Source: an uncultured Alphaproteobacteria bacterium
Lineage (GTDB): Bacteria; Pseudomonadota; Alphaproteobacteria; Rs-D84
Length of the DNA stretch: 64,000 nucleotides
NCBI GenBank assembly: GCA_944389465.1
Contig: CALXML010000003.1
Coordinates: 20,369-84,368 of the forward strand
Reading direction: 5' to 3'
Positions 4,252 through 38,785 of the stretch are shown here, one piece after another (within the stretch, counting starts at the first letter, position 1; each line of letters starts with the position of its first letter). The notes under the pieces were generated by a model that saw nothing but the letters and a program-made list of their open reading frames with translations, was not told where the DNA came from and made no database searches. The position numbers and the translations under genes were made by a program.

Positions 4252-4281
4252 TTGACGTATATGTTTGTTTCGGTGTATAAT
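4252..4281 (+). promoter_or_regulatory. Sigma70-like promoter of the type-2 leader / Cys-rich operon
   Basis: TTGACG (4252-4257), 18-nt spacer, TATAAT (4276-4281). Confidence 0.6.
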
Positions 4282-4287
4282 ATTTTT

Positions 4288-4436
4288 AAATAAATGCTGA
4301 AAATAAACCACCGATTATTATCGGTGTTTTTATTTGTTCGCAAATCCCAGATTTCTGGGATTTTTTTTATTTCACTGCGTGCCGAAATAAATCGGTGGGT
4401 TTGTTCAGGCAGAACATTATCAGAGAGAAACAAAAA
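4288..4436 (+). promoter_or_regulatory. Type-2 conserved 5' leader, copy 1 (two tandem terminator-like hairpins)
   Basis: Hairpins CCACCGAT/ATCGGTG+T5 (4318-4341) and AATCCCA/TGGGATT+T8 (4352-4378). A distal ATCGGTGGGTT (4401-4411) repeats the 3' arm. About 80% identical to the reverse complement of 34442..34568. Confidence 0.55.
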
Positions 4437-6113: not shown

Positions 6114-6808
6114 ATTTGGTGTTGATTATTGCTGGGGGCAGTGGGGTGCGTATGAACGGACGCGTGCCAAAGCAATTTATGAATATATCTGGGCGGCCGG
6201 TAATAATTCATACTTTAAGTGTTTTTCAAAAAAATAAAAATATTGACGCGATATGTGTTGCTTGTTTGGGTGGGTGGGAAAAATGGTTGCAAAAGTCGGC
6301 TGAAAAATATGGAATAACAAAATTACGGCATATTGCGGCGGGTGGGAAAACCGGTCAGGAATCAATTTTTAATGGCCTGACATTGTTGGGTAATTTATAT
6401 CCGATGGATTCAGTGGTTTTAATTCACGATGCTGTGCGGCCGATGGTATCCGATGAAATTATTAATAATTGTATTCGTGGGGTAAAAAAGTATGGTAATG
6501 CCGTGACCGCAATTGATTGCTATGACGCGATGATGATAACATCTGATGGCAAGACCAGTCATCAATTTATTCCACGTGAATTATTACGTCGGGTCCAAGC
6601 CCCACAGGGTTTTAAATTATCTGATATTTTAATGGCACATAAAATTGCCAATAACAGAAATATTAAAAATACTGTTACTTCGTGTACTTTGATGGCGGAA
6701 TTGGGATGGCCTGTTTATTTTTCACGTGGGTCTGAAAAAAATCTGAAATTAACATACGCCACGGATATAGAAATTTTTCAAGCATTGTTAAACGAGAATG
6801 ATAAATGA
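6110..6808 (+). CDS. IspD/TarI-family cytidylyltransferase (CDP-alditol synthase-like)
   Basis: N-terminal IIAGGSGVRM...VPKQF, and whole-length resemblance to TarI/IspD including the C-terminal NLKLTYATDIEI. The ATGA start overlaps the upstream stop. Confidence 0.75.
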   Translation: MNLVLIIAGGSGVRMNGRVPKQFMNISGRPVIIHTLSVFQKNKNIDAICVACLGGWEKWLQKSAEKYGITKLRHIAAGGKTGQESIFNGLTLLGNLYPMDSVVLIHDAVRPMVSDEIINNCIRGVKKYGNAVTAIDCYDAMMITSDGKTSHQFIPRELLRRVQAPQGFKLSDILMAHKIANNRNIKNTVTSCTLMAELGWPVYFSRGSEKNLKLTYATDIEIFQALLNENDK

Positions 6809-7818
6809 ATGCAATTTTGTTGACAGAATTTGATGATATTTATAAACGCCTTGAATCTGTATTGCCAAAATTGAATAATAAAGCGATTTTGATTACTGGG
6901 GCAACGGGCTTAATAGGGTGTTATTTAGTAAAGTTTTTATTGTATTTAAATGAACGGCATAATATGGGAATTAATATATATGCCACATCAACATCATTGC
7001 AAAAGTTATATGACAGGTTTGGTTCAGAAAATGTGAATTTGCATTATTTGCAAATGGATTTATCTGTGTCGGTAAAATTTCACAGAAAATTTAATTTTGT
7101 TATTCATGCGGCAGGGGTTACCAGCCCTGATGTTTTTGCAAATAATCCTGTTGGGGTGATGCGTACCAATTTAATTGGCACAATGTCTGTGTTGGACAGT
7201 GCCATTATGGCACATGGTGGGCGATTTTTATTTATATCATCAGGTGAAATATATGGTAACAATATTACAGATGTGCCATTTGTTGAAACAGATAATGGAA
7301 ATATAAATTGTACGGTGGTGCGTTCTGGATATCCAGAATCCAAGCGTGCGTGTGAAACATTATGTATGTCGTATGAACAACAATATGGAATACACGTAAA
7401 TGTGGCACGGTTGTGTTATATTTATGGCCCAACAATAACACAGAACAGTATGCGTGTGGATGCACAATGTTTACGTGCCGCGTTAAATGGTGAAAATATT
7501 GTTCTGAATACAGCGGGCAATCAACGCAGAACGTGGTGTTATGTGGCCGATGCAACGGCTGGGATTTTACAGATTTTATTATGTGCAAAATCTGGGGCAG
7601 TGTATAATGTGGCGCATACCAAATCAATCGCAACTATTTTAGAATATGCAACAACGCTGGCAAATATAGCAGGGGTTCGGGTTTGCATATCCACCAATAT
7701 ATATGGGGGTGGAAACAGTATATTGGACGGGACAAAGTTAATTGAATTGGGCTGGCAACCACAATATGATTTACAAACAGGCCTGTTGCATACATTTAAT
7801 ATCAAAAAATCCCAGTGA
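6805..7818 (+). CDS. NAD-dependent epimerase/dehydratase-family (extended SDR) enzyme
   Basis: GATGLIGCYL Rossmann motif and YPESK catalytic motif. ATGA overlap with the upstream gene. Confidence 0.75.
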   Translation: MNAILLTEFDDIYKRLESVLPKLNNKAILITGATGLIGCYLVKFLLYLNERHNMGINIYATSTSLQKLYDRFGSENVNLHYLQMDLSVSVKFHRKFNFVIHAAGVTSPDVFANNPVGVMRTNLIGTMSVLDSAIMAHGGRFLFISSGEIYGNNITDVPFVETDNGNINCTVVRSGYPESKRACETLCMSYEQQYGIHVNVARLCYIYGPTITQNSMRVDAQCLRAALNGENIVLNTAGNQRRTWCYVADATAGILQILLCAKSGAVYNVAHTKSIATILEYATTLANIAGVRVCISTNIYGGGNSILDGTKLIELGWQPQYDLQTGLLHTFNIKKSQ

Positions 7819-8682: not shown

Positions 8683-11229
8683 CTATGGCGAAGATACGGA
8701 TAATTTCCCGATTTGTATGAATGATTTTTCACTGGGTTCGGCACAAAATCCCCACTTGGTATTAGAACCTGTTTCGTCATAGAAATACTTAAATAACTTT
8801 TGACCGGTTTTATCGTGCAGGTCGTCGGGTGTTTGGTTTTCTGGGTCGGTGTTATTATATTTATCAACCCATTGTGTTGATACCCATGTCCCACCCAAAC
8901 GTTCGCATTCCGCAGATAATTGATTTGCCATATCCACACGCACAGTATCCATAACGATGTTAACGTCCTGTAATACACTTTCAGGTATTTTTGCACTGCT
9001 GCTGCCGGAAACGATGGCATCGTATTCCGATGGGCGCACACAGACCTGTGTTGCGTACTTTACCATTTTTTGATATAAACTGCCGATGTAATCGTCGCCA
9101 CAGTCTTGGTCAACTTCTATTCCCTCTTCACCGCCCTGTGGTGGTTGTGTGCCACCGGGGCATTGTGAATCGGCCGGACATGCCAAACACATATTTCCGG
9201 GGGTTGGATTGCCATTCGGTTTCCATACTCCTGTACCAACCTCTTTGGTTGCCATATAATAACCAACGTTACAGGACGTATACTTTTTATATGATGGGCA
9301 TGAATAACCCTTGGACGGTTGAGTGCCACTGCCGCCACCCGGATTTGTTGGGTTGGTTGTTTCAGACCATGTCTTTTGATTGCACCAGTAATTAGATGCG
9401 TATATTGCATCCCCCGGTGCATAAACGCGGCAACCATATGGATATGCATGTAATGTATCGTTGCTGGGGACGGTACACATATCTTGGGCAAAGGCTTCCA
9501 ACAGGGATTGACATTGGGCTTCCAGTTTTTGGTCGGTTATGTCATGCATTGCGGTCAGCAATAATTCCAAACCATTACCATTTGGGTCACCGTATAAATT
9601 ACTGCATGCGTATAATTTTTCTTCACATAATTCTTCGGATAATTCCAGACGGTTACCCAATAATAATTCTTCTTTTATATTACTGAAGTCTTTTAATGAT
9701 TCACTTTGTTCGTCATAACAAGAATTTACAACGTCCAAGCATTCGTTTTTCACAGTGCGGATTTTTTCCTGTTGACCCTGATATATTTCTACTATGGCCT
9801 GACGGACAAATTCATCCCAGACCTCGTCCGCGATGTCGCGACATGTTTCCAGACCGCGTTCTGCATATATACGTTTGTTATTTAATTCGGCAACAATCAT
9901 ACGGTTTGTTGCGTTGGTAAGTACATCGCCATCCAATGATATCTGGTTCCCCAATTCATAAAAGTCGCGGGAATATATCGGTTCGCCAGTGTCACGATTT
10001 AAATAAAGCCCCGTTATGTCCAAACAGTGAACGTAATCTTCGCCACAGGCGGTGTCCGCCGTTATATCGGCACGTACCTGTGCGATACAATCATTAATAG
10101 ATGTTGAATTGTGCGCGTTGTAATTTTCCAGTCTGGCAACGTTCATTTCACGTTCTGTTTCGCGAATACTGCTGTTTGCCTGAACCAATTGGGAATCCAG
10201 ATTATTTAATAACAATGAACAATCGTTTTCAATGTACATCCCATATGCAGAAACAACCATATCCAATGTTGATTGTGATGGACACTGTTCTGATATTAAA
10301 TCAACACACTGTGAATGAACGGCGTTGTACAGTGCTTCGCCAGTCAGGTTGGCTATGTTTTGCCCAGATGCCAAATCAGTTGTTGCCCAGATTTGATTTA
10401 TGTCGCCGGCAATGTCCAATGTGCCCAATGTAGATAAAGATTGACTTTTAGACGAAGATAAAACTTCGCGTATACCGGCCAATTGTTGGGATGATTCGGA
10501 TTTATCTTCGGTTATGGCCAATTCGCCTTCGCTGGCGGTTAACATGGCATTAACTTCTTCGGCCGTTTTGGGTATGACTTCTATGTTCAAATCGTGAAAG
10601 TCCTGTAATTGGCCAGATGCCTGTGACAGGGCGCGTTCGCGTTCCTGAATATCTGTTAATCTGGATGAACATATACAGCGACGATATGTATCATTTGCGG
10701 TTGCGCAAAATTGGTCCATACAGGTAAAGTATGCATTACGGCATTCGTTATATCCAGTTCCAAATGTGTTGGTCACAGTTGATGGTGCAACCGTTGTTGC
10801 ACGTGCCTGTGCGCGTGCACTGCGTGCGACATTGTTGGTGGTTGCACTTCTGGCGGGGGTGTTTGTACCACTGCGCACAACAGTGTTGTTTGATGCCGTG
10901 CGTGGGGATGTGGTTTGACCCTTGGCCGATGTGACCGCAGTGCGGGCCATTGTTGCGGCGCGTGATGTGCCACCCGATATGGCGTTTGTTCTGGATGTTG
11001 AATTTGTTGCAGAATTTCTGGTAACCGTGTTTGTGGATTCGCGTGTTGTGGTGGTTGGGCGATTACTGACCGTTGGGGATGTTATGCGACCCGTTCGCGC
11101 AATTACTGTTGATGCGTTTTCAGATGCAGATTGGTTATCACGGTTAATTACGTTTGTGCCACGAGATGCAGCGTCGGCATTTGCGATGCCGAAAAAACAC
11201 GCAATAATAAAGAGCAAAATGCTTCTCAT
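8683..11229 (-). CDS. Giant secreted Cys-rich protein, CMDQFC family (paralog 1, 848 aa)
   Basis: Signal peptide, then a ~140 aa S/T/R/N-rich low-complexity region, then the core motif ECRNAYFTCMDQFC (10705-10743) with RCICSS shortly after. Helical Cys-pair segments are shared with the three paralogs. The C-terminal part carries GYY/CxxCP repeats. Confidence 0.8.
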   Translation of the reverse strand: MRSILLFIIACFFGIANADAASRGTNVINRDNQSASENASTVIARTGRITSPTVSNRPTTTTRESTNTVTRNSATNSTSRTNAISGGTSRAATMARTAVTSAKGQTTSPRTASNNTVVRSGTNTPARSATTNNVARSARAQARATTVAPSTVTNTFGTGYNECRNAYFTCMDQFCATANDTYRRCICSSRLTDIQERERALSQASGQLQDFHDLNIEVIPKTAEEVNAMLTASEGELAITEDKSESSQQLAGIREVLSSSKSQSLSTLGTLDIAGDINQIWATTDLASGQNIANLTGEALYNAVHSQCVDLISEQCPSQSTLDMVVSAYGMYIENDCSLLLNNLDSQLVQANSSIRETEREMNVARLENYNAHNSTSINDCIAQVRADITADTACGEDYVHCLDITGLYLNRDTGEPIYSRDFYELGNQISLDGDVLTNATNRMIVAELNNKRIYAERGLETCRDIADEVWDEFVRQAIVEIYQGQQEKIRTVKNECLDVVNSCYDEQSESLKDFSNIKEELLLGNRLELSEELCEEKLYACSNLYGDPNGNGLELLLTAMHDITDQKLEAQCQSLLEAFAQDMCTVPSNDTLHAYPYGCRVYAPGDAIYASNYWCNQKTWSETTNPTNPGGGSGTQPSKGYSCPSYKKYTSCNVGYYMATKEVGTGVWKPNGNPTPGNMCLACPADSQCPGGTQPPQGGEEGIEVDQDCGDDYIGSLYQKMVKYATQVCVRPSEYDAIVSGSSSAKIPESVLQDVNIVMDTVRVDMANQLSAECERLGGTWVSTQWVDKYNNTDPENQTPDDLHDKTGQKLFKYFYDETGSNTKWGFCAEPSEKSFIQIGKLSVSSP

Positions 11230-11712: not shown

Positions 11713-13893
11713 ATGAGATTAGGAATAATTTTTTCTTTGTTGTGCCTGATGCCGGAATTGGCGATGGCTGCAACCCGCGGGGATACATCTGTTCGTGTCG
11801 GTGTGAACAGAATGGCACAGGCTGGCTTGCATTCTGCCAATATGTCGGTTGATGTGTCTGATGGTGGTGGAAATAAAGTATCCAATTCTATGCCTACGTT
11901 GAATGTTAACCCCGGTGTTTCTGGTTCTGGGGAAAATACCACGCCGGATGTCAGTGGAACAACAAATAATACCGGTAATACCAATAATACGGAACAAACG
12001 CCGGTTGCAAACAGTGAAAATTGTCGTGATGCGTATCGTGCATGTATGGACCAATTTTGTTTGCTGGATGAATCCGAGGGCAGTCGCTGTGCCTGTTCAT
12101 CAAATATAAATCAATCAAAATCACTTATCCAAGAAATCCAAGAAATCCAAGAAGAGGCAGATATTCTGTATACCGAGGGTGTAGAACGCGAACAAATGGG
12201 GGCACAGGCTAAATTAGTCTTTGGTGAAAGCGAGGCCGCGCAAAAAAGTTCCCGTATATCTGGTATTAATTTTGCAGAATGGATAAGCAGCGGAACCGAA
12301 GAAGATGTCAGTTTGGGTTCTGACAGTGATATAGGTGACCCATTGTATGCAATGGCGGCGGAATATTGCGCATCTGAATTAGAGGCCTGTGGCGACAAGG
12401 CCGAAATGGAAGAGGTTTTATACGCACGTATGATTGTGCAGGATTGTAAAACATTTGAATCTTATTTGAATGACCAGAAAACCATTGCGGAGCAAAACAA
12501 ACGCACGGCCGAGGCTGCTGTCCGTCAGGCGCGTTTGGAAATGTTGGATACCACAAATAAATATAATCGTGGTGAATGCTTGTTGGCGTATCGTTCATGT
12601 ATCGCGGACAAGGGTGGTTGTGGTGTAAATTTTGAAAATTGTTTGGATGCTGATTTGTTGCAACGTCGTGCAAATGCGTGCGAAAATGTTTTGGACCAAT
12701 GTATGGCGGTGCGTGAATATGTTTTGCAAGATTGGCAGGACGAAGCAGTCAGTATTTTGGCTGATGCTGCAAAATATGCTGACAGAAATGCGCGTGCAAC
12801 CTGTTTGGCGCGAATCCAATTATGTTTGGAAGATGGTTGTTCCACGGAAACCAATTCTGCATGCTTAACAGATGTTAATGTTGCGGCCGGTGTTTGTCCG
12901 GTTATTGACGAATGTGAGGCGATGATTCCGGGGATTAAATCGGTTGTAAATGATAAATTGGGATATTTGCGTACTCAATTCTGTCAAAATGATGTTGATG
13001 CATGTTTACGTGACAGATGTGGTGAAAACTTTACCGCGCCGGAATGCGTTGGTAAAAGTGCGCTGGAAATTGCCGAATTGTGTCCACAGGATATGTTCCC
13101 ATCGTGCAAAAATGAAACACAATTTGATATTATTGTTCAGGCCGCCATGCTGCAAATGGATTATCAAATGTTACAGGGATGCTTGAACTATTTCAGTGAA
13201 CAATTGGGTGCAGTTTGCGGAACGGATATGTCGTGTTTACCAACCGATACACAAATTGCATCATTGACCAGTGTGCCAGAGGAGCAGGAAGATTTGGCCG
13301 CATTGCGTGAAAGTGTTTTGGCAAATACCGAGGCCGCCGTTGATGAATTTTTTGAACAGTTTGAACAGGACAAAACCGTTGCTGCATGTCAGGACAGTCA
13401 AAAGCCGGCCGACCGCAGCAGTTTGGGCGACAGCGTATTTAATACTGCAAAAATGATTGCACAGATTAATGCTGAAAATCGTTCTATGCGTGAATTGGAA
13501 TCCAAAATTGCGGAACTGTCACGTCAACAGGATTTAGAAGAAGCAGAAGCAAACTGTTATAAATTGTATCAGGTTGAAACACCGGATGAATCTGATAAAA
13601 ATTACAGTTACATCCGCAGTGTTGTGTTTGAACCAGCCCTGCGTAATTGCCATGTTTGCCGTATGCAACAGGTTTGCGAGGTTGGTGGCCAGTCCAAGGG
13701 TGCGGCCGGTGTTCAGGGTGCAGCCGGTGGTTTGGCCGCGGGTGCATCTGCCGGTACAATGGTGTCACCGGGGTGGGGTACTGCAATTGGTGCGGTCGTT
13801 GGTGCGGTTGGCGGATTCTTTGCAGGACGCAGTGCCGGTGGCGAACAAGAATTTTGTCAGGAAATAGAAAGTTGCGAGGATATTAATATGTAA
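11713..13893 (+). CDS. Giant secreted Cys-rich protein, CMDQFC family (paralog 2, 726 aa) with a C-terminal Gly/Ala-rich hydrophobic segment
   Basis: Signal peptide; core NCRDAYRACMDQFC at 12022-12060; shared segments (CENVLDQCMAVREYV etc.) with the 835-aa paralog; ends ...FCQEIESCEDINM. Confidence 0.8.
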   Translation: MRLGIIFSLLCLMPELAMAATRGDTSVRVGVNRMAQAGLHSANMSVDVSDGGGNKVSNSMPTLNVNPGVSGSGENTTPDVSGTTNNTGNTNNTEQTPVANSENCRDAYRACMDQFCLLDESEGSRCACSSNINQSKSLIQEIQEIQEEADILYTEGVEREQMGAQAKLVFGESEAAQKSSRISGINFAEWISSGTEEDVSLGSDSDIGDPLYAMAAEYCASELEACGDKAEMEEVLYARMIVQDCKTFESYLNDQKTIAEQNKRTAEAAVRQARLEMLDTTNKYNRGECLLAYRSCIADKGGCGVNFENCLDADLLQRRANACENVLDQCMAVREYVLQDWQDEAVSILADAAKYADRNARATCLARIQLCLEDGCSTETNSACLTDVNVAAGVCPVIDECEAMIPGIKSVVNDKLGYLRTQFCQNDVDACLRDRCGENFTAPECVGKSALEIAELCPQDMFPSCKNETQFDIIVQAAMLQMDYQMLQGCLNYFSEQLGAVCGTDMSCLPTDTQIASLTSVPEEQEDLAALRESVLANTEAAVDEFFEQFEQDKTVAACQDSQKPADRSSLGDSVFNTAKMIAQINAENRSMRELESKIAELSRQQDLEEAEANCYKLYQVETPDESDKNYSYIRSVVFEPALRNCHVCRMQQVCEVGGQSKGAAGVQGAAGGLAAGASAGTMVSPGWGTAIGAVVGAVGGFFAGRSAGGEQEFCQEIESCEDINM

Positions 13894-13953: not shown

Positions 13954-16461
13954 ATGAAAATAAAGTACATAATTGGTTCTGTTGTTGGATTGGCGGCGTT
14001 GGTGGTGGCACTGGATTCATATGGGTTAACCACGTCCAGTTCAAAACGTCAATCTGCGATACAGCAGGGGACAACCGTCCGTACCAAGGTAGAGGCAACC
14101 GGATTATATGACCAAGCATGTTATGATGCTTATTTTGGTTGTATGGACCAATTTTGTATAACTGATAATGCCAGTGGTGGTGCGTGTAACTGCAGCGATA
14201 CTGTTTTGGAATATAACGAAGAATTGGCGTCTATTGAAAGTATTTTGGACGAAGCAAATCGTCTGCGCACAGAAGAGATTGAACGTGTCAAGGCTGGTGC
14301 AGATGCTGATATTATTTTTACTGGGGAACGTCGCTATGACGCAGATGGCAATATTCTGGCCGAAGACGAATTAACCGAAGAAGAGGAAAAAGAAAAACGG
14401 CGTGCAGATTTATTGGCGATATTTAATACCAGCATATATTCCGAAGACCCCTTTGAAGAACAAAGTACTGTTGGCAGTATGGCTGATATGATGGGGGCGG
14501 AATTGTATAATGCTGCAAATGAATTATGTATGGCACAGGTGCCGGATTCTTGCGCGGGGGATATTGCTTTTCTGCAACAATTATATTCACGTCAAATAAC
14601 ATCTGATTGTTTGGGGTATAAAAATTCACTGGCCCAGCAACGCGCAAATGCAGAAAATGAATTGGCCGCCGCTGAATCCGAAGTGCGCACCGCATTAAAG
14701 GAGAGTTTTGAAAGTGCCAACAAATATGATTTGGGCCAATGTATGGTTGAATTTAGAAATTGTATGCAGACAGAAGATGCCTGTGGCGAAGATTGGGAAA
14801 ATTGCGTGATGACCGTCGCGTCTGAAAATATGCAGAATAACGAGGCCACCAGTACCGCTGGCACAACGGTTGAAACTGTTGATACATATGATATAACGGC
14901 GTCAACAATGGAAATGTTAAACGCCAAACGTCCAATTTGTGAAAATGTTTTGGACCAATGTGTGGCGGTGCGTGACCAAGTGTGGCCTAATTTCCTGCGC
15001 GAAGCCGCCCCAACAATCAAGGTGGCGGAAAGTATTGTTGAATCAAAATTCCGTCAATCGTGTTTAACTGATATTTCTGAATGTATTCAAACAGCGTGTC
15101 GTGATGATATCGCAGGCAAGGGCGTTGCCACAATGGACGCCTGTTTGTCGCGTCCGGAAATGGCACGCAGTTTTTGCAAGGTTGAAATTGACCCCTGTGA
15201 ACGTATGGAACCACTGATTTGGGGGTATGTAGAAGATAAGTTGGCCGCAATGCGTGTTGATGCCTGTACACAAGAGGTCAAAGATTGCTTTACGGCCGAT
15301 ACCCGCTGTGGGCCAAACTTTGAAAACTGTATCGGTATGGATTATGAATATATCCATGATATTTGCCCGATTGACAGTTTGGTTGTGTGCAAGGCGAATA
15401 ATCCTGCATTTTCCATGGATGATTTGGATGATATGCTGATGGGATTATATTTGAATATTGATAATGCCATGATGGAACAGTGCCAGAATATTGTGGATAA
15501 GAAAATGGCCGAGGTTTGTGGCAGTACATCGGATTGTAACCGTTTCGCAGCCGATGATACAATTGGTACTGGGTCTTTGCGCAGTCAAAAGGATGGCACA
15601 ACATACCGTGTTACGGGTATGATATCTTTTGGCAGCCTTAAGATGGGTGACAGTGATGGCGAAACTGTTTCTGATGGTGATGGTGGTACAATGCGAATTG
15701 GCCCCGGTGAAATCGCAATTGGTGATTATTTGGAAAAAATCCGCGAACGTAATGCCGGTGTTGATAATGCCGAAGGGATAATTTCTTCTATTGAAGAAGA
15801 ATTGAACAATATTGCGGGGACTATTAATCGCACTATTGAAATGATTGAACAAGACCCTGAAATTCAATACTGTGTTAATGGGCGTGATTTGTCGCAAATT
15901 ACCGGTGATGCAGGCGATAAAACCAGTGGGCGTTTCCCGAACCTGTTAAATCAGGTTAAAATGCAAATTGCTGTTTCTGCATTGCGACAGGCACAGGATA
16001 ATTATAACAATAAATTAAATCACGAAATTGCCGAAGCCACCAAAAATGCATCTGCTGATTTGGCGCAATATATGTGCCAGAAAATTGCTGAAAATGGTGG
16101 GGCAGGTGGCGGTGATATAAATGCGTCAACACCGTTGGCCGCGCCATATGCAATCAGTTACGATGTGGGGTCGGGGCTGACAACCGAAGATTTGGCATCC
16201 GGTGGTGCGGGCGTTCTGCAGGCGGATGGTGTGACATTTACGAACAGTGGCTATCTGGGCGGGTCCAGTTTTAATGGGGGCGGTATGACCAAAACTGTGC
16301 GTGCAATATTCAGCCGTGAAACCAGAACATGTCATATCTGTACACAAACTGTTACCCAGAATTGTAAAACCACGGGCAGCAGCAGTTGGTTCCACAACAG
16401 CAGAAATACCAGCTGTACGACCGAGGCATCAGACGAGGTTTGTGAAGACATCGTGATGTAA
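13954..16461 (+). CDS. Giant secreted Cys-rich protein, CMDQFC family (paralog 3, 835 aa)
   Basis: RBS GGAGAG; N-terminal hydrophobic signal; core ACYDAYFGCMDQFC at 14119-14157; ends ...EVCEDIVM. Confidence 0.8.
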   Translation: MKIKYIIGSVVGLAALVVALDSYGLTTSSSKRQSAIQQGTTVRTKVEATGLYDQACYDAYFGCMDQFCITDNASGGACNCSDTVLEYNEELASIESILDEANRLRTEEIERVKAGADADIIFTGERRYDADGNILAEDELTEEEEKEKRRADLLAIFNTSIYSEDPFEEQSTVGSMADMMGAELYNAANELCMAQVPDSCAGDIAFLQQLYSRQITSDCLGYKNSLAQQRANAENELAAAESEVRTALKESFESANKYDLGQCMVEFRNCMQTEDACGEDWENCVMTVASENMQNNEATSTAGTTVETVDTYDITASTMEMLNAKRPICENVLDQCVAVRDQVWPNFLREAAPTIKVAESIVESKFRQSCLTDISECIQTACRDDIAGKGVATMDACLSRPEMARSFCKVEIDPCERMEPLIWGYVEDKLAAMRVDACTQEVKDCFTADTRCGPNFENCIGMDYEYIHDICPIDSLVVCKANNPAFSMDDLDDMLMGLYLNIDNAMMEQCQNIVDKKMAEVCGSTSDCNRFAADDTIGTGSLRSQKDGTTYRVTGMISFGSLKMGDSDGETVSDGDGGTMRIGPGEIAIGDYLEKIRERNAGVDNAEGIISSIEEELNNIAGTINRTIEMIEQDPEIQYCVNGRDLSQITGDAGDKTSGRFPNLLNQVKMQIAVSALRQAQDNYNNKLNHEIAEATKNASADLAQYMCQKIAENGGAGGGDINASTPLAAPYAISYDVGSGLTTEDLASGGAGVLQADGVTFTNSGYLGGSSFNGGGMTKTVRAIFSRETRTCHICTQTVTQNCKTTGSSSWFHNSRNTSCTTEASDEVCEDIVM

Positions 16462-16998: not shown

Positions 16999-17379
16999 TT
17001 ATTCAATCGGACGTACAATTTGTCCGTCGCCTGTAACGGGAAAACCACCGGAAATACTGTCAGTCATTGGACATGCATTGGTAAAAACGTATGAACCAGT
17101 CCGGTCGCTGTATCTGGTATTTGCCGGTGCATACATTATGCATGAACCCGACGGGTTTGATACCAGACAACTGTCCGCAGTACCGGCGGATACATATCCA
17201 GTGGGACATGCACTGTCCGCAATTGTCATATATTCTTCCTCTATTGCTATATAGCCATCCGGACAAGATGTAGATGGTGTAATTATCGCCTGTACTGGCG
17301 GTCCGATAATAACACCTCCATCCAGTGCAAATGCCGACACAGGAAAACACAATATTAATAAAATCAATATTCGTTTCAT
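16999..17379 (-). CDS. P2-family small secreted Cys protein (copy a, with a C-terminal extension)
   Basis: Start at MKRILILLIL (RBS GGAG). Conserved core TSCPDGYIAIEEEYMTIADSACPTGYVSAGTADSCLVSNPSGSCIMYAP shared with 20415..20693 and 37541..37822. Confidence 0.75.
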   Translation of the reverse strand: MKRILILLILCFPVSAFALDGGVIIGPPVQAIITPSTSCPDGYIAIEEEYMTIADSACPTGYVSAGTADSCLVSNPSGSCIMYAPANTRYSDRTGSYVFTNACPMTDSISGGFPVTGDGQIVRPIE

Positions 17380-17390
17380 CGCAATCTCCA

Positions 17391-17837
17391 TTAGTCAGAT
17401 AAATTGGAAAATAATGCATTCCTAATGGTATTATCAACACCACCGCATACTCTGGCACACTGGTTTATACACGCAGCATAAGTTGTTGATGAACTATAAG
17501 GCGGCCTAACCCATTGCGAAACTGCCGGACTTATCATTTTACACCAACAGTATTTATTAGAACTTGTGATTGATGAATTAACACTTATGTTTTCTAATAC
17601 ATCGCCTGCTTGGCCTTCATTCGCGGCACATACACCGACACCGACCAAATCAACAGTTGTTGTTCCTGTATTACACGTTGCATACCAGTCAATTGCGCCA
17701 CCAGTTCCTAGACTGATAGCGGTATTATTTTCGCATGAAACAATATTGTCCCCAAATGCCACACATTTGGTGACGGCAATGGCCGGTGGGATTGTGGCCA
17801 CACAAATCAGGCCGGCAATTAATAAATGTTTTTTCAT
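17391..17837 (-). CDS. P1-family small secreted Cys protein (copy a)
   Basis: Start at MKKHLLIAGLICVATIPPAIA (RBS GGAGA). Conserved NKYCWCKMISPAVSQWV and C-terminal FSNLSD. Paralogs at 19984..20400 and 37837..38289. Confidence 0.75.
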   Translation of the reverse strand: MKKHLLIAGLICVATIPPAIAVTKCVAFGDNIVSCENNTAISLGTGGAIDWYATCNTGTTTVDLVGVGVCAANEGQAGDVLENISVNSSITSSNKYCWCKMISPAVSQWVRPPYSSSTTYAACINQCARVCGGVDNTIRNALFSNLSD

Positions 17838-18046
17838 ATTCTTATCTCCATTTTCTTTTGTTTTTGAATAAAGAAAAACCACCAGAAATATTCAGGTGGT
17901 TGGAGTTTAAGAACAATCCAATAAATTGCGTGTTTTATTCTGTATATTCAACACACTCCAACCATTATGGTTGGATTAGTTTTTCGTCCGTATCACAGAC
18001 GTATTGGATGGGTTCTTAAGCCCAATATGTGAACACCACATATCGC
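17838..18046 (-). promoter_or_regulatory. Type-1 structured 5' leader, copy A (subtype II), upstream of P1a/P2a
   Basis: Promoter TTGATT (18079-18074), 16-nt spacer, TAATAA (18057-18052). Helices: TTAAGAAC/GTTCTTAA, TCCAACC/GGTTGGA, GTGTGTT/AACACGC, CAAT/ATTG. Terminator CCACC/GGTGG plus a U-run (17874-17899). Confidence 0.65.
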
Positions 18047-18133
18047 TTTTATTATTATCACAGACTGTAAATAAATCAACGATAAAATCATTTATTGGCG
18101 TTGGGCAATATTATTTGTATAATACCCCATAAT

Positions 18134-18787
18134 ATGAAATTGGAATCAAATGGAATTTTAATCGCACTGCAACCATTGGGTGAACGTGATTCTGTCGCCC
18201 GTATTTTTACTGCTGATTTTGGCGTTGTGTGTGGTATGATGCGCGCAGCACAAATTATGCGCAAAAACAGGCCCTTGGTTGGGCAAATCGGTACAGCCGT
18301 TTGGAATGCACGTTTGGATTCACAGTTGGGAACTTTCCATTGGGAATCTGAAAAAAATATCGCCGTTCCACTTATGACATCACGCGCAACATTGGCGTAT
18401 ATGAACAGTGCATTTGCATTAATCACAGCGTTATTGCCAGAACGCGAACAATACAAGATTTTATATGATAACACAGTTCGCCTGATGTATGAATTGGCCA
18501 ATGCCAATCCATATGATGCATATTTAAATTGGGAAATTTTATTATTGCGTGAATTGGGATATGCGCTGAATTTAAACGCCTGTTCTGGGTGTGGGGCACA
18601 TGATAATTTGGAATATTTGTCACCGCGCACTGGGCGCGCGGTTTGTGTAAATTGTGCCGCGCCTTATGTTGACAGGCTGTATAAATTGCCGTTAAACCTG
18701 AATATTACCCAACGATTTTTGGAACGTGCCTGTTTTGCCCAAGGAGCAAATTTACCACCCGCACGAAAAATGTTAACAATTGGATAA
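18134..18787 (+). CDS. recO: DNA repair protein RecO
   Basis: Start at MKLESNGILIALQPLGERDSVARIF (OB-fold N-terminus). C-terminal Zn motif CSGCG...CVNC. Confidence 0.8.
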   Translation: MKLESNGILIALQPLGERDSVARIFTADFGVVCGMMRAAQIMRKNRPLVGQIGTAVWNARLDSQLGTFHWESEKNIAVPLMTSRATLAYMNSAFALITALLPEREQYKILYDNTVRLMYELANANPYDAYLNWEILLLRELGYALNLNACSGCGAHDNLEYLSPRTGRAVCVNCAAPYVDRLYKLPLNLNITQRFLERACFAQGANLPPARKMLTIG

Positions 18788-18865
18788 ATTGTGTAATTTA
18801 TTCCTTGCACAATATAAATTTTTTGATTATCTTTTAATCAGTTCAACAGATAAAGGAGAAAAACT

Positions 18866-19699
18866 ATGACTTGGACAATCTTGGTTCTGGTGATTGGTAT
18901 TCTGTTGTTCCTGTTTGGTGGTATGTTGCTGCCAAAGGGCGATGAAAAGAAACCATCCGCTGGAAAAATCGTTGCAAAAAAATGCATCACTGTAATTGCT
19001 ATTATCCTGATTTCAGGCAGTATATGCCGTTTGTATATGCCATATTACCTGACCGCTGTTAATCCAGTAATCGTTCAGGAAATGGTCAACGGTATGCAGG
19101 AACAGCAACAGGCCGAAAAAAACAAACAAATTCGTAAATTTGTCCGTTCCGAAGGCGACAAAATGATGCGTGATGCCCCAGTTTTGGGTAATCGCGATGC
19201 GAAAAAGACAATTTATGTTTGGACAGACTTCTCTTGCCCATTCTGCCGTCGTGTACATGGTGAAATTGAACGCGTATTGGCCGACCGTGACGATACACGC
19301 GTAGTTATCAAGAATTTCTCTATCCACGGGCCATTGTCTGATGCACCGGCCAAGGCTGTGATTGCTGCAAAGTTGCAAGACCCAGCAAAGGCTGCTGAAT
19401 TGACAAATATGTTGATGACACGTGAATTTTACACCCAAGAAGATTTGCAAGACCAATCCACATTGGCGGACAAGGTTGAAGCAAACGTTATGAAAATGGC
19501 CAAAGAAGCCGGCTTGGATACTGAAAAGTTGAAAGAAGACATGAACGGCGATGTTGTTGCACGTGAAATGCGTGACGTTCGTGATTTGGCACAACGCTTT
19601 GAAATCAGCGGTACACCATTCTTAATCATTGGTGAACAGGCTTTTCCGGGCGCAATCCCAGCCGACCAAATAGAGGCTGCATTGGATGAAGCAAAATAA
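18866..19699 (+). CDS. Membrane-anchored DsbA-family thiol:disulfide oxidoreductase
   Basis: N-terminal TM helix; thioredoxin-fold active site FSCPFCRRVH; C-terminal ISGTPFLIIG. Confidence 0.8.
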   Translation: MTWTILVLVIGILLFLFGGMLLPKGDEKKPSAGKIVAKKCITVIAIILISGSICRLYMPYYLTAVNPVIVQEMVNGMQEQQQAEKNKQIRKFVRSEGDKMMRDAPVLGNRDAKKTIYVWTDFSCPFCRRVHGEIERVLADRDDTRVVIKNFSIHGPLSDAPAKAVIAAKLQDPAKAAELTNMLMTREFYTQEDLQDQSTLADKVEANVMKMAKEAGLDTEKLKEDMNGDVVAREMRDVRDLAQRFEISGTPFLIIGEQAFPGAIPADQIEAALDEAK

Positions 19700-19717
19700 A
19701 TTATTCATCTGATTTAT

Positions 19718-19749
19718 AAAAAAGTCCCACCAAATGGTGGGACTTTTTT
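19718..19749 (+). terminator. Intrinsic terminator
   Basis: GTCCCACC-aaat-GGTGGGAC followed by T6. Confidence 0.8.
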
Positions 19750-19785
19750 ATGGAAATATATATTTTTATAAAGTATAATTTTTGT

Positions 19786-19983
19786 CGTATCAGTGATATT
19801 GCTGATATGGGGTGTCGAAACCCGTCTAAACTGTCCGCGACGACATAAAACTATATCTCCAACTGTTTTGGTTGGAGGGTTGTGAATATACTGAATAAAC
19901 AACACTATGTTTAGATAGTTTCGAACCTCCAACCACCTTAAATTCGGTGGTTTTTTCATTCGCAATGAAAAAGGAGGTTTAGA
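19786..19983 (+). promoter_or_regulatory. Type-1 structured 5' leader, copy B (subtype I), upstream of P1b/P2b
   Basis: -10 TATAAT at 19774-19779. Helices: TATCAG/CTGATA, TCGAAAC/GTTTCGA, CTCCAAC/GTTGGAG, GTTGT/ACAAC, ACTAT/ATAGT. Terminator AACCACC/GGTGGTT plus T6 (19931-19956). Confidence 0.65.
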
Positions 19984-20400
19984 ATGAAAAAACATTTATT
20001 AATTGCCGGCCTGATTTGCGTGGCCACAATCCCATCGGCCGTGGCCGTGACCAAATGCGTAAAACTGTCATCTTCATCAACGTGTTCCAATTATGCGGGC
20101 GATGGGTCAAATTGGTCAATAACATGTGACGGAGTGCCTGTAAGCGGTGTTATATTTTGTGGCTCGCAGGATGGTGGTTCACGGGGTGCAACATCCACCG
20201 CTGTCGCAATCAGTTCAACCATTGAGGACAACAAATATTGCTGGTGTAAAATGACATCACCCGCAGTGTCGCAATGGGTCTTCGTCAACGAGTTAACGTC
20301 AGCCAGTCAATGCAAAACACTTTGCACATTCAACTGTGCGTATGGCACTCAATCCCAAGCATCTATGCGGTCTGCGATGTTCAGCAATCTGTCTGACTAA
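19984..20400 (+). CDS. P1-family small secreted Cys protein (copy b)
   Basis: MKKHLLIAGLICVATIPSAVA signal; NKYCWCKMTSPAVSQWV; C-terminal FSNLSD; RBS AAGGAGG. Confidence 0.8.
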   Translation: MKKHLLIAGLICVATIPSAVAVTKCVKLSSSSTCSNYAGDGSNWSITCDGVPVSGVIFCGSQDGGSRGATSTAVAISSTIEDNKYCWCKMTSPAVSQWVFVNELTSASQCKTLCTFNCAYGTQSQASMRSAMFSNLSD

Positions 20401-20414
20401 ACAGGGGGACGAAT

Positions 20415-20693
20415 ATGAAACAAATAATTGTTTTAATTATGGTGATTGCACCGATTGGCGTATTTGCCGCCGCACCGTCCACATCATGCCCATCGGGTTA
20501 TGTCGCAGTGGTGGAAGAATATATGACAATCGCGAACAGTTCGTGTCCCACCGGATATACATCCGTCGGCACGGCGGACAGTTGTTTGGTATCAAACCCA
20601 TCGGGTTCATGCATAATGTATGCGCCGACCGGTGTCAGTTATACGGATGCATCCGGTACATACGAATATACCGCCGCATGCGCAATGGAATAA
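20415..20693 (+). CDS. P2-family small secreted Cys protein (copy b)
   Basis: Signal peptide; TSCPSGYVAVVEEYMTIANSSCPTGYTSVGTADSCLVSNPSGSCIMYAP...YEYTAACAME; RBS GGGGGA. Confidence 0.8.
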   Translation: MKQIIVLIMVIAPIGVFAAAPSTSCPSGYVAVVEEYMTIANSSCPTGYTSVGTADSCLVSNPSGSCIMYAPTGVSYTDASGTYEYTAACAME

Positions 20694-20730: not shown

Positions 20731-20758
20731 AAAAATCGCCCATGTGGGCGATTTTTTT
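20731..20758. terminator. Bidirectional terminator (P2b / rplI)
   Basis: A5-TCGCCCA-tg-TGGGCGA-T7. Confidence 0.75.
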
Positions 20759-24251: not shown

Positions 24252-24276
24252 AAAGCGGGGCGTTGCCCCGTTTTTT
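24252..24276. terminator. Bidirectional terminator (CGGGGC family)
   Basis: AAAAG-CGGGGC-gtt-GCCCCG-T6. Confidence 0.8.
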
Positions 24277-24802
24277 ATGATTGATAGTAACAGTTACTGT
24301 CATATACGCCGGAACCGGTGCTGTCTGAAAAGGATGTGCCCGCCGGTATATAACATGTTGTTATACTAAAACTGCCGGTGGTGGCCGTGGTTGCGGCGGA
24401 ATGGCCTGTTGCCGTGGCACAACTGGTGCATTTGCCTGAAAGGCTATTAAGGCTGTAATATCCCTTGTCGCAGGAATATTGACATGTGGCAAGTGTCCCA
24501 CTTTTTACGCATCGTACTGTGTAATGGCCGGATTCGCTGTGGGTCGGTGTTGTGCTGGGGCAGGCGGACGGGCAACTGGGGCCCCCACCGCCAGTGCTTT
24601 GACAAGTGCATACTGCGGTTGGGGTTTGGCCACTGGGGCATGTCAGTCCACTGCAGTTACATGTTTTACATGACCCGTCCGGATTATATGTCGCGCACGG
24701 ATATGGTGGCGTGCATAGAACAGAAGGATAGGTTATTGCATCGGCCGGCATTGTTTGTATAAGAACCGCTGTCAGTGCGGTAATAATTGTTATTGGTTTC
24801 AT
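24275..24802 (-). CDS. Secreted cysteine-rich protein with a C-terminal GYY...CxxC...CYIP...CYY module
   Basis: Signal peptide MKPITIITALTAVLIQTMPADA; RBS GGGGA; C-terminus CDKGYYSLNSLSGKCTSC...TTCYIPAGTSFSDSTGSGVYDSNCYYQS. Confidence 0.75.
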   Translation of the reverse strand: MKPITIITALTAVLIQTMPADAITYPSVLCTPPYPCATYNPDGSCKTCNCSGLTCPSGQTPTAVCTCQSTGGGGPSCPSACPSTTPTHSESGHYTVRCVKSGTLATCQYSCDKGYYSLNSLSGKCTSCATATGHSAATTATTGSFSITTCYIPAGTSFSDSTGSGVYDSNCYYQS

Positions 24803-27475: not shown

Positions 27476-27826
27476 ATGGTTGGAATAAAGCACCAGATGT
27501 GTGAATTTGATATTAATGCCGGACGAATTATTGCAATGCTGCGTATGCGTATGGGATTAAGCCAGCAGGATTTGGGTAAAAAATTGGGTGTTACTTTTCA
27601 GCAAATTCAAAAATATGAATGTGGCGAAAACAGATTAACCGCCGCACGATTAAATGATATTTGCCGTGTGTTTGAAATATCGCCGGCCGCATTTTATGAC
27701 AATGTTAACCTGCCATATGTTCATGATAAATGTATGATGGATTTAATAAATACTGTTTATAAATTACCAACTGGCCAGCGCAAGATTATTTTGCAAATCG
27801 CCACGGCATTCCATTTGGCGGGCTAA
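27476..27826 (+). CDS. XRE-family helix-turn-helix transcriptional regulator (116 aa)
   Basis: GLSQQDLGKKLGVTFQQIQKYECGENRLTAARLNDICRVFEISPAAF is a canonical HTH_XRE pattern; RBS GGGGGA. Confidence 0.8.
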   Translation: MVGIKHQMCEFDINAGRIIAMLRMRMGLSQQDLGKKLGVTFQQIQKYECGENRLTAARLNDICRVFEISPAAFYDNVNLPYVHDKCMMDLINTVYKLPTGQRKIILQIATAFHLAG

Positions 27827-31393: not shown

Positions 31394-31573
31394 CTATTCC
31401 AGTGGACATACGGATGTGAATATGTATGCGCCGCTGTCGTCTGTAAAACGAACGCTTGGTGGTGCATACATTATGCACGAACCGGCGGGATTGCCAGCCA
31501 AACAAGTGTCTGCCCTGCCGGCGGGCGCGACTGTCGGGCGGGTTGTATTTTTTATATGGTGTACTATATATAT
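31394..31573 (-). pseudogene. Decayed P2-family gene fragment (no start codon, no signal peptide)
   Basis: My manual translation of the minus frame ending at TAG (31396-31394) gives ...KNTTRPTVAPAGRADTCLAGNPAGSCIMYAPPSVRFTDDSGAYIFTSVCPLE*. An in-frame stop lies at 31574-31576, and a conserved Cys is replaced by Arg. Confidence 0.6.
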
Positions 31574-34568: not shown

Positions 34569-34573
34569 TATGT

Positions 34574-37836: not shown

Positions 37837-38289
37837 TTAGTCCGACAGTTGACTAATCATATTTGGTAAAAATTGTGGAAAATTTGATTTGAAGTTCAAT
37901 CCATCACGGCACGCAGTGGCACAATTGTTTATGCACATGCCATTGGATGGGAAAGAGGATGCATACACCCATTGTGATACGGCGGGGGATGTCATTTTAC
38001 ACCAGCAATATTTATTGTCATCCGCCGTACCACTGCTGGTCAGGGTGACAGACAGGGTGGCGGACAATTTGCCGGCAGTGTCACCGTTTTGTGATGAACA
38101 GGCGGCAATGCCACTGACTGTTGTTGGGCCACCACGCATTGAACAACTGCCGGACCAGTCCAGATTTCCACTTTGTGCATCAATATTGCATGTCATACTG
38201 GTGTTTAATGCCACACATTTGGTGACGGCCGCGGCGGGCGGAATTATGGCCACGCACAGCAGGCCGGCGATTAATAAATGTTTTTTCAT
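37837..38289 (-). CDS. P1-family small secreted Cys protein (copy c)
   Basis: Start at MKKHLLIAGLLCVAIIPPAAA; NKYCWCKMTSPAVSQWV; C-terminal ISQLSD; RBS GGGAGA. Confidence 0.8.
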   Translation of the reverse strand: MKKHLLIAGLLCVAIIPPAAAVTKCVALNTSMTCNIDAQSGNLDWSGSCSMRGGPTTVSGIAACSSQNGDTAGKLSATLSVTLTSSGTADDNKYCWCKMTSPAVSQWVYASSFPSNGMCINNCATACRDGLNFKSNFPQFLPNMISQLSD

Positions 38290-38495
38290 ATTCTTATCTC
38301 CCTTTTTCATTTTATTGATATGAAAAAACCACCAGAATTTTCGGGTGGTTGGAGTTTAAGAACAATTGAGTGAATTGCGTGGCTTATTCAATATATTCAC
38401 CACACTCCAACCGCTATGGTTGGATTTATTTTTTACGTCCGTTCCCAGACGCACCCAATGGGTTCTTAAGCCCAATGTGGAAACACCCCACATCA
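38290..38495 (-). promoter_or_regulatory. Type-1 structured 5' leader, copy D (subtype II), upstream of P1c/P2c
   Basis: Promoter TTGATT (38528-38523), 16-nt spacer, TATTAT (38506-38501). Helices: ATGTGG/CCACAT, TTAAGAAC/GTTCTTAA, CGTCTG/CGGACG, TCCAACC/GGTTGGA, GTGTGG/CCACGC, CAATT/AATTG. Terminator CCACC/GGTGG plus a U-run. Confidence 0.65.
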
Positions 38496-38603: not shown

Positions 38604-38785
38604 GTCATTGGATGATTACCAATGTGGGGTGTAAGAACCTCTTCTTCGTGCGAACTCCAACACGGGTTGGAGGGTCGTGATATATTTGAATAAGCGACAC
38701 TATTTACGAAGAATAGTTCTTAACCTCCAACCGCCTTTCATCACGGCGGTATTTTTGTTTAATAAAGCAAATTTGGGGGGATAAA
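38604..38785 (+). promoter_or_regulatory. Type-1 structured 5' leader, copy E (subtype I), upstream of XRE regulator 2
   Basis: Promoter TTGCAA (38571-38576), 16-nt spacer, TATAAT (38593-38598). Helices: CATTGG/CCAATG, TAAGAAC/GTTCTTA, CTCCAAC/GTTGGAG, GTCGT/GCGAC, ACTAT/ATAGT. Terminator ACCGCC/GGCGGT plus a T-run (38730-38756). Confidence 0.65.

Follow-up and report, generated by a model that had tools for sequence, protein, structure and literature searches.

Diversity-generating retroelements (DGRs) diversify variable proteins through an error-prone reverse transcriptase that miscopies the adenines of a template repeat, and their known footprint is an adenine-free scaffold with randomized codons of the AAY type. 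The DGR variable proteins include Mtd of a Bordetella phage, TvpA of Treponema and LdtA of Legionella. Here we describe a family of two-gene cassettes, encoding the proteins P1 and P2, in a 64,000-nucleotide stretch of DNA from an uncultured alphaproteobacterium (the window), and we compare it with DGRs and other described systems. The window was assigned to Candidatus Enterousia (order Rs-D84, Alphaproteobacteria) from its own genes and from every named homologue. Genomes of this group measure 0.75–1.0 Mb, lack the tricarboxylic acid cycle and a respiratory chain, and have almost no biosynthetic capacity (PMC12306168). With moderate confidence, we read each cassette as an RNA-gated operon for what would be an exported, disulfide-rich P1–P2 binding module, with a variable helical face that was probably diversified by a DGR-type mechanism in sister species and appears frozen in the window.

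The hypermutation pattern was read from seven P1 genes in four metagenome-assembled genomes (MAGs), in which the last 33 codons before an invariant tail form a hypervariable segment. In this segment the proportion of differing nonsynonymous sites (pN) is 0.20–0.37 and that of differing synonymous sites (pS) is 0.00–0.07, whereas pS reaches 0.1–0.5 in the rest of the same genes. In the variable codons, which have the form NNC or NNT, all four bases occur at the first two positions and the third is fixed. These codons are set in the invariant scaffold TGC GCG .. TGC GCG .. TGT GCG .. GCT CGG .. TTC CGG TCG GCG CTG TTT AGT GGA CTA TCT GAC. Adenine occupies none of the 53 invariant columns of the segment, compared with 58 of 201 elsewhere in the gene. 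A replication on six genes from two human-gut assemblies gave 0 of 50 invariant columns, against 65 of 221 elsewhere.

Sister-genome P1 genes resemble DGR targets in having a C-terminal hypervariable stretch of ~100 nt, variation at positions 1 and 2 of AAY-type codons, an A-free scaffold and an invariant 3′ end. P1 proteins are also like DGR targets in being secreted or surface-exposed, as predicted, and encoded several times per genome, and the host genome is reduced and dependent on other organisms, as is reportedly the case for DGRs of the Candidate Phyla Radiation and DPANN. Unlike DGR systems, the family came with no reverse transcriptase, Avd or intact template repeat in the sequences searched. 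DGR targets have a C-type lectin or immunoglobulin fold; P1 is modeled as a beta-sheet with a disulfide-stapled helix pair and had no match in the PDB, which holds Mtd and TvpA. The obligatory small partner P2 and the window copies, which lack the pattern, also set the family apart.

The P1–P2 operons and their leader RNA

The window contains three intact P1+P2 operons and one truncated fourth copy. A first-pass annotation of this DNA had proposed three such cassettes, and their open reading frames (ORFs) lie at the coordinates that it gave; the decayed fourth copy that it mentioned is also present, as the C-terminal half of P2 with a terminator. Copy 1 P1 matches the family profile at E=6.7e-41, and the E values of the profile and of the leader covariance model given below rule out the cassette family as a product of chance. 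The features of the cassettes are listed here; related loci compared with the window are cited by L-numbers, and P1-domain cluster representatives from a profile search by P-numbers.

18051..18079, minus strand: promoter-like site of cassette 1, TTGATT-17-AATAAT, from a consensus scan; position conserved in the leader alignment
17391..17837, minus strand: P1 copy 1, 148 aa; Sec signal peptide; 9 Cys in the mature protein; AT-rich (ordinary) C-terminal variable segment
16999..17391, minus strand: P2 copy 1, 130 aa from the first ATG or 126 aa from the MKRIL start; long form
18866..19699, plus strand: membrane-anchored DsbA-like oxidoreductase between cassettes 1 and 2 (Pfam DSBA, 9e-20); context only
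19751..19779, plus strand: promoter-like site of cassette 2, TGGAAA-17-TATAAT, from a consensus scan
19984..20400, plus strand: P1 copy 2, 138 aa
20415..20693, plus strand: P2 copy 2, 92 aa; Sec signal peptide; 5 Cys in the mature protein
20731..20756, bidirectional: terminator hairpin between cassette 2 and rplI
37837..38289, minus strand: P1 copy 3, 150 aa; AT-rich C-terminal segment
37541..37822, minus strand: P2 copy 3, 93 aa
37478..37540, minus strand: 3′ end of cassette 3; identity with the relic's 3′ end 83% (repeat family D6); terminator included by that similarity
about 31394..31520, minus strand: fourth-cassette relic, C-terminal half of P2 only (ending in CLAGNPAGSCIMYAPPSVRFTDDSGAYIFTSVCPLE and a stop codon), no start codon
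31340..31365, minus strand: terminator hairpin of the relic, AAAACGGGGCAATGCCCCGTTTTTT, read from the sequence

Among the window copies, pairwise identity is 48–49% for P1 and 53–64% for P2. The three P1 proteins have in common the signal peptide MKKHLLIAGL(I/L)CVA, the motif NKYCWCKM(T/I)SPAVSQWV, a C-terminal S(N/Q)LSD and 9 mature Cys residues. The near-identity of the signal-peptide DNA, another early claim, is borne out over the first 77 nt of P1, where copies 1 and 2 are 92% identical and copies 2 and 3 are 86% identical. P1 and P2 are separated by 14 nt in copies 2 and 3, and their stop and start codons overlap in copy 1. The long form of P2 in copy 1 results from an N-terminal insertion and a C-terminal extension, and the same form occurs in L002 at 12062. 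As predicted from these features, the order of the operon is a sigma-70-type promoter, a structured leader of ~200 nt with an intrinsic terminator, P1, P2 and a final terminator.

Since L027 carries an intact cassette at the exact position of the relic, between clpP and a DNA methylase gene, the relic would be the deletion product of a once complete cassette. Genes around the cassettes include recO, dsbA, rplI, ygiW and clpB; other window genes are pgk, clpPX and polA, and the G+C content of the window is 42%. The DsbA-like neighbor is a plausible oxidant of the Cys-rich products. Cassettes 1 and 2 (16999–20693) are inverted repeats on either side of recO-dsbA. In L001, a single cassette is found between recO and rplI, and the orientation of recO-dsbA is opposite to that in the window. 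One L001 cassette against two inverted window copies suggests that the present arrangement arose by inversion or duplication through recombination between cassettes.

The leader occurs in the window upstream of the three cassettes and of other genes, as follows (MFE, minimum free energy; HTH, helix-turn-helix).

17838..18045, minus strand: leader of cassette 1, model core 17866–18024; MFE z=-7.2; covariance-model match of 192 bits; covariation
19786..19983, plus strand: leader of cassette 2, model core 19809–19963; terminator hairpin at 19931–19952
38290..38495, minus strand: leader of cassette 3, model core 38316–38474; 188 bits
27304..27466, plus strand: leader before an XRE-type HTH gene (27476–27826, Pfam HTH_3); 75 bits, E=4e-16
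38626..38762, plus strand: leader before a small HTH ORF (38786–39013); 56.6 bits
24856..25065, minus strand: divergent leader before a 175-aa Cys-rich secreted ORF (24802..24275); 37.8 bits, E=9e-7

The three cassette leaders match one covariance model with E values from 1e-21 to 1e-45, in agreement with the shared RNA leader of the first-pass annotation, and their MFE z-scores against shuffled controls are -7.2, -4.6 and -5.3. The model was hand-seeded from two copies, and RNAalifold on a plain MAFFT alignment recovered the structure only in part. In the window and 29 related loci, 41 instances were detected at E<1e-6. Pairing was found in 91% of cells, compared with 31–51% in slid controls, compensatory changes occur in 38 of the 47 pairs, and the leader score was reached by none of 500 shuffles.

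Two folds can be drawn for this RNA. Fold I comprises an inner helix and three hairpins in addition to a long closing helix; the hairpin AACCACC..GGUGGUU and a U-run come next, before the Shine-Dalgarno (SD) site; in cassette 1, this terminal hairpin and its U-run lie just before the SD site. The conserved loop GAAUAUAYNGAAUAA belongs to one of the three hairpins, and CUCCAACC..GGUUGGAG forms another. The 3′ arm GGUUGGAG(G) has a second possible partner in 41 of 41 instances: with (C)CUCCAACC it can form an alternative helix of 8–10 bp, which covaries (GGUCAGGAG/CUCCUGACC, GGUCGGGA/UUCCCGACC, GGUUGGGG/CCCCAACC) and overlaps 4 nt of the terminator stem; the terminator hairpin and U-run are present in all copies. 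Fold II is a three-way junction closed by the alternative helix, and many of the 41 instances, but not every one, adopt it as their MFE fold when the 3′ module is taken in isolation. The leader also contains a CCUCC complementary to the SD site. We conclude that it is, as predicted from these pairings, a bistable terminator/antiterminator device. In fold I, the multi-helix junction would leave CUCCAACCACC free for the terminator and CCUCC free to mask the SD site, and the operon would be off. In fold II, GGUUGGAGG would pair with CCUCCAACC to close an sRNA-Xcc1-like three-way junction, half of the terminator stem would be removed, and the operon would be on.

At the gathering threshold, Rfam returned three tRNAs only in the window. 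Below it, sRNA-Xcc1 (RF02221; threshold 53 bits) matched at 19870–19942 with 32.8 bits and at L007 12140–12232 with 44.8 bits, and no other leader copy tested gave a match to this family. The likeness lies in a G-rich/C-rich helix (GGUUGGAGG:CCUCCAACC in the leader, GGCCGGGGGG:CCCCCGGCC in the Rfam model) that closes a three-way junction, with ACC and a U-run after it. Apart from scoring below threshold, with most copies unmatched, the leader differs from sRNA-Xcc1 in that its junction makes up only the 3′ half of a longer RNA and can be unfolded by the 5′ half, which adds a terminator decision. With attenuating riboswitches the leader shares a covarying structure in the 5′ untranslated region, an intrinsic terminator before the SD site and a segment with two mutually exclusive partners. 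Unlike them, it matches no Rfam family, and the genes downstream encode surface or secreted proteins and HTH regulators, not metabolic or transport functions.

The leaders might instead be small RNA genes, or a mobile repeat, which lie upstream of these genes by chance and are not cis-acting switches; the terminator would then end a small RNA. Consistent with this, the leader has its own terminator, six copies are present in 64 kb, and the sRNA-Xcc1 family that its 3′ module resembles (32.8–44.8 bits) has been described as a trans-acting small RNA. However, wherever the downstream gene was checked (P1 cassettes, XRE orthologs, and the HTH and Cys-rich ORFs of the window), the leader was in sense orientation and immediately upstream of the start codon, with the SD site 20–40 nt after the U-run. 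Moreover, the alternatively pairing element is complementary to the SD site and shares nucleotides with the terminator stem, and published cases of sRNA-Xcc1 also lie directly upstream of genes (symE, ORF6N). We consider this reading unlikely; a free small RNA is possible as a by-product of termination in the leader.

The position of the leader before two HTH regulator genes and another Cys-rich secreted protein suggests that the genes linked to it form one regulon. The leader of the XRE gene is conserved in L001, L018, L026 and L027. The 175-aa ORF at 24275–24802 on the minus strand is secreted and very rich in Cys, Thr and Pro, and has no family match. The leader represents a well-populated new RNA motif (41 instances in some 0.4 Mb) that covaries in two conformations and is linked to the poorly understood sRNA-Xcc1 family, and it offers a testable hypothesis of a terminator/antiterminator switch for surface proteins. 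In L002, sub-threshold matches to Wolbachia sRNA 46 (RF02625) were observed on both strands at 10941–11088 (44 and 42 bits, compared with a threshold of 65), upstream of the leader of the second cassette (about 11429).

The P1–P2 pair and its relatives

P1 and P2 gave chance-level matches only in Pfam, NCBIfam and PHROGs, and a sequence-profile search of the PDB with both proteins found no match; the first-pass annotation had likewise recognized neither family. Sub-threshold Pfam matches of P2 include STb_secrete (E=0.023) and Defensin_4 (E=0.26), all far below the cut-offs. The claim that both proteins are small and secreted agrees with Sec-type signal peptides read from the sequence, MKKHLLIAGLICVATIPSAVA followed by VTKC in P1 (KK, hydrophobic core, AxA site) and MKQIIVLIMVIAPIGVFA followed by AAPS in P2. 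The Sec-type pattern, with a basic n-region, a hydrophobic core and a small-x-small site, is kept across 35 P1 and 35 P2 genes. Lipoprotein anchoring of P1 or P2 was ruled out by the lack of a lipobox, and a type IV pilin by a signal peptide that is not of class III. Mature P1 has ~117–129 aa with 9 conserved Cys, and mature P2 ~74 aa with 5; the count was 5 in 34 of 34 stand-alone P2 genes extracted and always 9 in P1.

An AlphaFold2 model of P1 copy 2, based on an alignment of 96 sequences, had a predicted local distance difference test (pLDDT) score of 86.5 overall and >95 for the mature part. The predicted fold has five beta-strands followed by two C-terminal helices, and the first helix carries three Cys at i, i+4 and i+8. 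A Foldseek search of the PDB and BFVD with this model gave no match (best E about 1, template modeling score <0.3). In the model, the 33 codons of the hypervariable segment cover both helices and the final part of the last strand.

In L022, a single ORF at 6401–7042 is a natural fusion of mature P2 to mature P1 (..DCPLD-PVTKC..), with 213 aa and 14 Cys. This fusion, together with the odd Cys counts of the separate proteins (9 and 5), argues for a P1–P2 heterodimer, probably with one intermolecular disulfide and with P2 folding on P1. The fusion gene sits directly after a separate P1 gene. In the mechanism that we propose, both proteins would be exported and oxidized by the adjacent DsbA system, and the heterodimer would bind ligands at the cell surface or as a secreted module, in the manner of an adhesin or a receptor. 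Its variable binding surface would be the exposed face of the P1 helices that are stapled by disulfides, and in sister species this surface would be rewritten by a DGR-type mechanism.

A word-indexed search retrieved 458 P1 and 310 P2 homologues, all unnamed or labeled hypothetical; those with a named source came from Candidatus Enterousia or proteobacterial MAGs only. In a scan of one genome per species we found 29 loci, all in Enterousia-like gut MAGs, with P2 directly 3′ of P1 in most. The cassette family is specific to Enterousia (order Rs-D84), and several relatives carry cassettes at matching positions between housekeeping genes. Copies number 6 to 10 or more per genome, with at least 10 in BRZ_KQ bin82 and at least 7 in Ca. 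E. intestinigallinarum, as expected of the multi-copy family with a conserved framework and variable cores that had been proposed. Enterousia and its relatives are common gut bacteria of <1 Mb which, with no respiratory chain and little biosynthesis, must rely on other cells (PMC12306168). Given this number of copies in a tiny genome and an evolution much faster than that of the neighboring genes, the family is a prime candidate for the interface by which they attach to or sense their partners.

An exhaustive P1 profile search yielded 1187 cluster representatives at E<=1e-3, among them proteins of 327–6218 aa with 2–6 tandem P1 domains. P0262 (4750 aa) combines P1 domains with Listeria-Bacteroides repeats and a C-terminal endonuclease I domain. 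Listeria-Bacteroides repeats are usually found in surface proteins. The occurrence of tandem P1 in large proteins points to a widespread, unannotated domain of extracellular type, of which the stand-alone P1+P2 operon would be the Enterousia form. Three giant proteins of 4750–6218 aa from related alphaproteobacterial contigs, P0262, P0264 and P0412 (L112 8536–22788), contain 5–6 P1-type domains.

An alternative role is structural: P1 and P2 might be envelope proteins that form a disulfide-cross-linked outer layer, with variability due to drift or to evasion of immunity or phages. The parallel is with the chlamydial OmcA/OmcB, also a small and a larger Cys-rich exported protein in tandem, with Pmp-type autotransporters in the same organism. 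The window fits this picture in that Cys residues are abundant and odd in number, the DsbA gene lies between two cassettes, a Chlamydia-type Pmp autotransporter and three large Cys-rich secreted paralogs are also encoded, the promoter looks strong and the copies are many. Nevertheless, neither protein resembles OmcA/OmcB or other known envelope proteins in sequence or fold. The sizes differ from those of OmcA/OmcB, P1 is not a lipoprotein, and hypervariability is not an Omc feature. PBP1C and a lytic transglycosylase-like ORF are present, so a substitute for peptidoglycan would be unneeded, and diversification directed at one helical face is a typical trait of binding sites, not of lattice contacts. 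We assign the envelope-layer role a low probability and retain the binding module as the preferred function.

Variation of P1 in sister genomes and in the window

Tails of P1 genes fall into two classes, one A-poor (A 7–17%, GC 56–69%, with little A at third positions and none in most genes) and the other ordinary. In two strains with ~99% identical flanks, the cassette is a divergence hotspot, and the differences in the hypervariable segment are nearly all at codon positions 1 and 2, with a spacing of 3 nt. From the pattern as a whole we infer a DGR mechanism in the sister genomes. An AAC-rich, template-like copy of the P1 tail was found in L014 (6575–6700), 190 nt after P1, and reads FNNANTSAGSCANNVQNNASFRSALFSGLG. 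It has 8 AAY codons, 5% A elsewhere and an unusual 3′ end in common with the adjacent gene, and we read it as a decaying template; a scan of about 0.45 Mb revealed no second 105-nt stretch that is AAY-rich and A-poor in this way. The template-like copy and a 108-aa ORF (orf108) are both inserted between P1 and P2 of L014 (6575–7262). No family, no PDB match and no copy in other loci was found for orf108.

NNC/NNT variation could also arise without a retroelement, through gene conversion between paralogs combined with diversifying selection, or through another mutator, with the scaffold serving as anchors for recombination. No reverse transcriptase or intact template occurred in any sequence examined, the whole cassette (leader, N-terminal part and P2) diverges between near-identical strains, which points to recombination as well, and the pS of 0.09 at the signal-peptide end in the window marks conversion between copies. 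But gene conversion leaves unexplained the adenine-free invariant positions (0/53 and 0/50), third positions fixed as C or T while positions 1 and 2 take all bases, and the AAC-rich template-like copy. On this evidence we judge an origin without a retroelement to be improbable, and a DGR-type mechanism remains our preferred explanation for the sister genomes.

The family shares dispersed copies, conserved ends, variable cores, relics and 5′-end conversion with Anaplasma msp2/p44 and Neisseria pilE/pilS, as these systems are generally described. Unlike in those systems, all three cassettes have a promoter, a leader and an intact ORF of their own, there are no silent cassettes that feed one expression site, and the cores in this genome are saturated at synonymous sites and stable within the species.

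The first-pass annotation had described conserved ends around variable cores, and each half of this description holds in part. At the signal-peptide end, conservation extends to the DNA: pS is 0.09–0.39, and the value of 0.09 belongs to copies 1 and 2, which indicates recent conversion there. This is not so for the CWCKM..SPAVS motif, in which pS between window copies is 0.64–0.91 and pN is 0–0.08. With synonymous sites saturated and pN near zero, the motif is kept by selection at the protein level, and homogenization of its DNA across the family is ruled out by the diversity of synonymous codons family-wide. The cores are indeed divergent between copies, with saturated pS of 0.68–0.92 in the variable segments, but they are stable within the species in this genome. 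Window copies recur in other samples as 92–99% identical variants with changes spread over the protein. In contrast to the neutral decay as pseudogenes that had been named as a refutation, they are stable, expressed-looking genes and not pseudogenes. The same within-species variants argue against active hypermutation in the window's own species.

Comparison of window copy 2 with L001 gave 68% protein identity for P1 and 73% for P2, compared with about 94% for the neighbors (recO only 71%). The part of P1 copy 2 that corresponds to the hypervariable region of the sister genomes is the following.

20281..20379, plus strand: counterpart of the sister-genome hypervariable region in P1 copy 2, residues 100–132; A 26%, A at 27% of third positions

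P1 copy 2 is the positional ortholog of the A-poor L001 gene and still has parts of the scaffold in common with it, which suggests that copy 2 is a decayed former target. The second cassette of L002 (11616), recognized by its long form of P2, is the ortholog of the copy 1 lineage. We infer that copy 2 derives from the hypermutated class and that the other two represent older lineages of paralogs with an ordinary composition, all three being frozen and long diverged. The "divergent cores" would then comprise an N-terminal part that evolves fast in the usual way and a C-terminal helical part, the variable face of the family, that is frozen here. If hypermutation is confirmed, the family would provide a series from active genes through a decaying template relic to frozen copies.

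Several observations weigh against an RNA-gated operon for a DGR-diversified binding module. Scans for ORF motifs of the YxDD type found no reverse transcriptase in the window or in ~440 kb of related loci, and no RVT_1 gene lies beside five further P1-domain genes. BLAST with the variable segments detected no intact template repeat in the window or the related loci, and two pattern scans each of metagenome and viral contigs detected none among the matches listed: the exact template-like pattern had 0 matches in metagenome contigs, a looser scaffold pattern had 73, of which 6 were real P1 genes and none a template, and the viral scans gave irrelevant matches or none. A protein search with a synthetic template-like peptide produced no candidates. 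The template-like copy of L014 differs from the neighboring gene by indels, and only 13 of 24 mismatches are at A. In the window itself, the P1 tails have 26–28% A, 40–48% G+C and A at 22–28% of third positions, the hypermutation pattern is absent, and within-species variation is low and not concentrated in the C-terminal segment. Covariation of the leader was counted on a model-fitted alignment, which favors the model, and on that alignment the third hairpin of fold II is poorly supported (59% paired); the structure is nonetheless secure from the size of the effect and from covariation that is also visible in the plain MAFFT alignment. AlphaFold2 modeling of P2 alone reached a pLDDT of 47, too poor to use, and the proposed export, disulfide bonds, P1–P2 pairing, binding of ligands and switching by the leader are predictions from sequence.

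Taking these points together with the footprint, we rate the family as a putative variable protein of the DGR type, built on a new scaffold and paired with a second subunit, coupled to a new regulatory RNA motif; the missing reverse transcriptase is a main reservation. A more specific proposal is held tentatively, at somewhat less than an even chance. P1 would be an undescribed hypermutation scaffold, a helix pair stapled by three disulfides to a beta-sheet with P2 as obligatory partner, diversified in gut alphaproteobacteria of reduced genome by a retroelement distant from its many targets or by a mechanism other than that of classical DGRs. Separately, the leader would found a new class of regulatory RNAs with two stable states, related to sRNA-Xcc1 and acting as a riboswitch or as an attenuator that responds to a protein, over a regulon of surface proteins and HTH regulators. 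If hypermutation is confirmed, a new fold would join the short list of natural scaffolds for targeted diversification, with relevance to DGR biology and to the engineering of binders.

Of the two functions suggested at the outset, a variable surface or secreted family fits the fast evolution of the cassette and the targeted hypermutation of the P1 C-terminal core in sister genomes. The other, a two-component toxin or two-peptide bacteriocin pair with copies as different alleles secreted against competitors, is very improbable. In its favor, P1 and P2 are small, secreted proteins rich in Cys and encoded in pairs, their several copies diverge, and the weak Pfam matches of P2 are to toxin- or defensin-like Cys motifs. 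Against it, the signal peptides are of Sec type with AxA sites and not the double-glycine leaders of class II two-peptide bacteriocins, no immunity, processing or exporter gene is among the called ORFs beside the three cassettes (no systematic screen of the flanks was made, and related loci were compared only for genes shared with the window), the chromosomal loci keep their synteny across species between housekeeping genes, and the P1 domain occurs in tandem in proteins of 800–6200 aa, one of them with Listeria-Bacteroides repeats.

Other features of the window

Several further genes for putative surface or secreted proteins were noted in the window. A 1362-aa protein encoded at 103–4191 on the plus strand has Chlamydia-type Pmp repeats (FxxN/GGAI) and an autotransporter beta-domain (Chlam_PMP 4e-30, Autotransporter 4e-34), and its repeats constitute direct-repeat family D1. 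Three paralogous Cys-rich secreted proteins of 726–848 aa with no Pfam family are encoded at 8683–11229 (minus strand), 11713–13893 (plus strand) and 13954–16461 (plus strand). Homologues of these lie a few kb from P1/P2 cassettes in L009, L010, L012 and L019, and the large paralogs may be part of the same surface apparatus as P1 and P2.

At 54955–63139 on the minus strand, a bacterial alpha-2-macroglobulin (1930 aa) is encoded beside a PBP1C-type penicillin-binding protein, in a genome of about 0.9 Mb; this combination is a known periplasmic defense pair. Three tandem 57-nt repeats (98% and 74% identical) at 51670–51840 start inside or adjoining tRNA-Leu(aag) at 51599–51682. A 98-nt inverted repeat pair, 81% identical, has its arms 30 kb apart at 4269–4366 and 34489–34586, and the second arm is about 150 nt from tRNA-Leu(caa). 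Weak matches to the leader model, of about 27 bits, were observed on both strands at 4278–4407.

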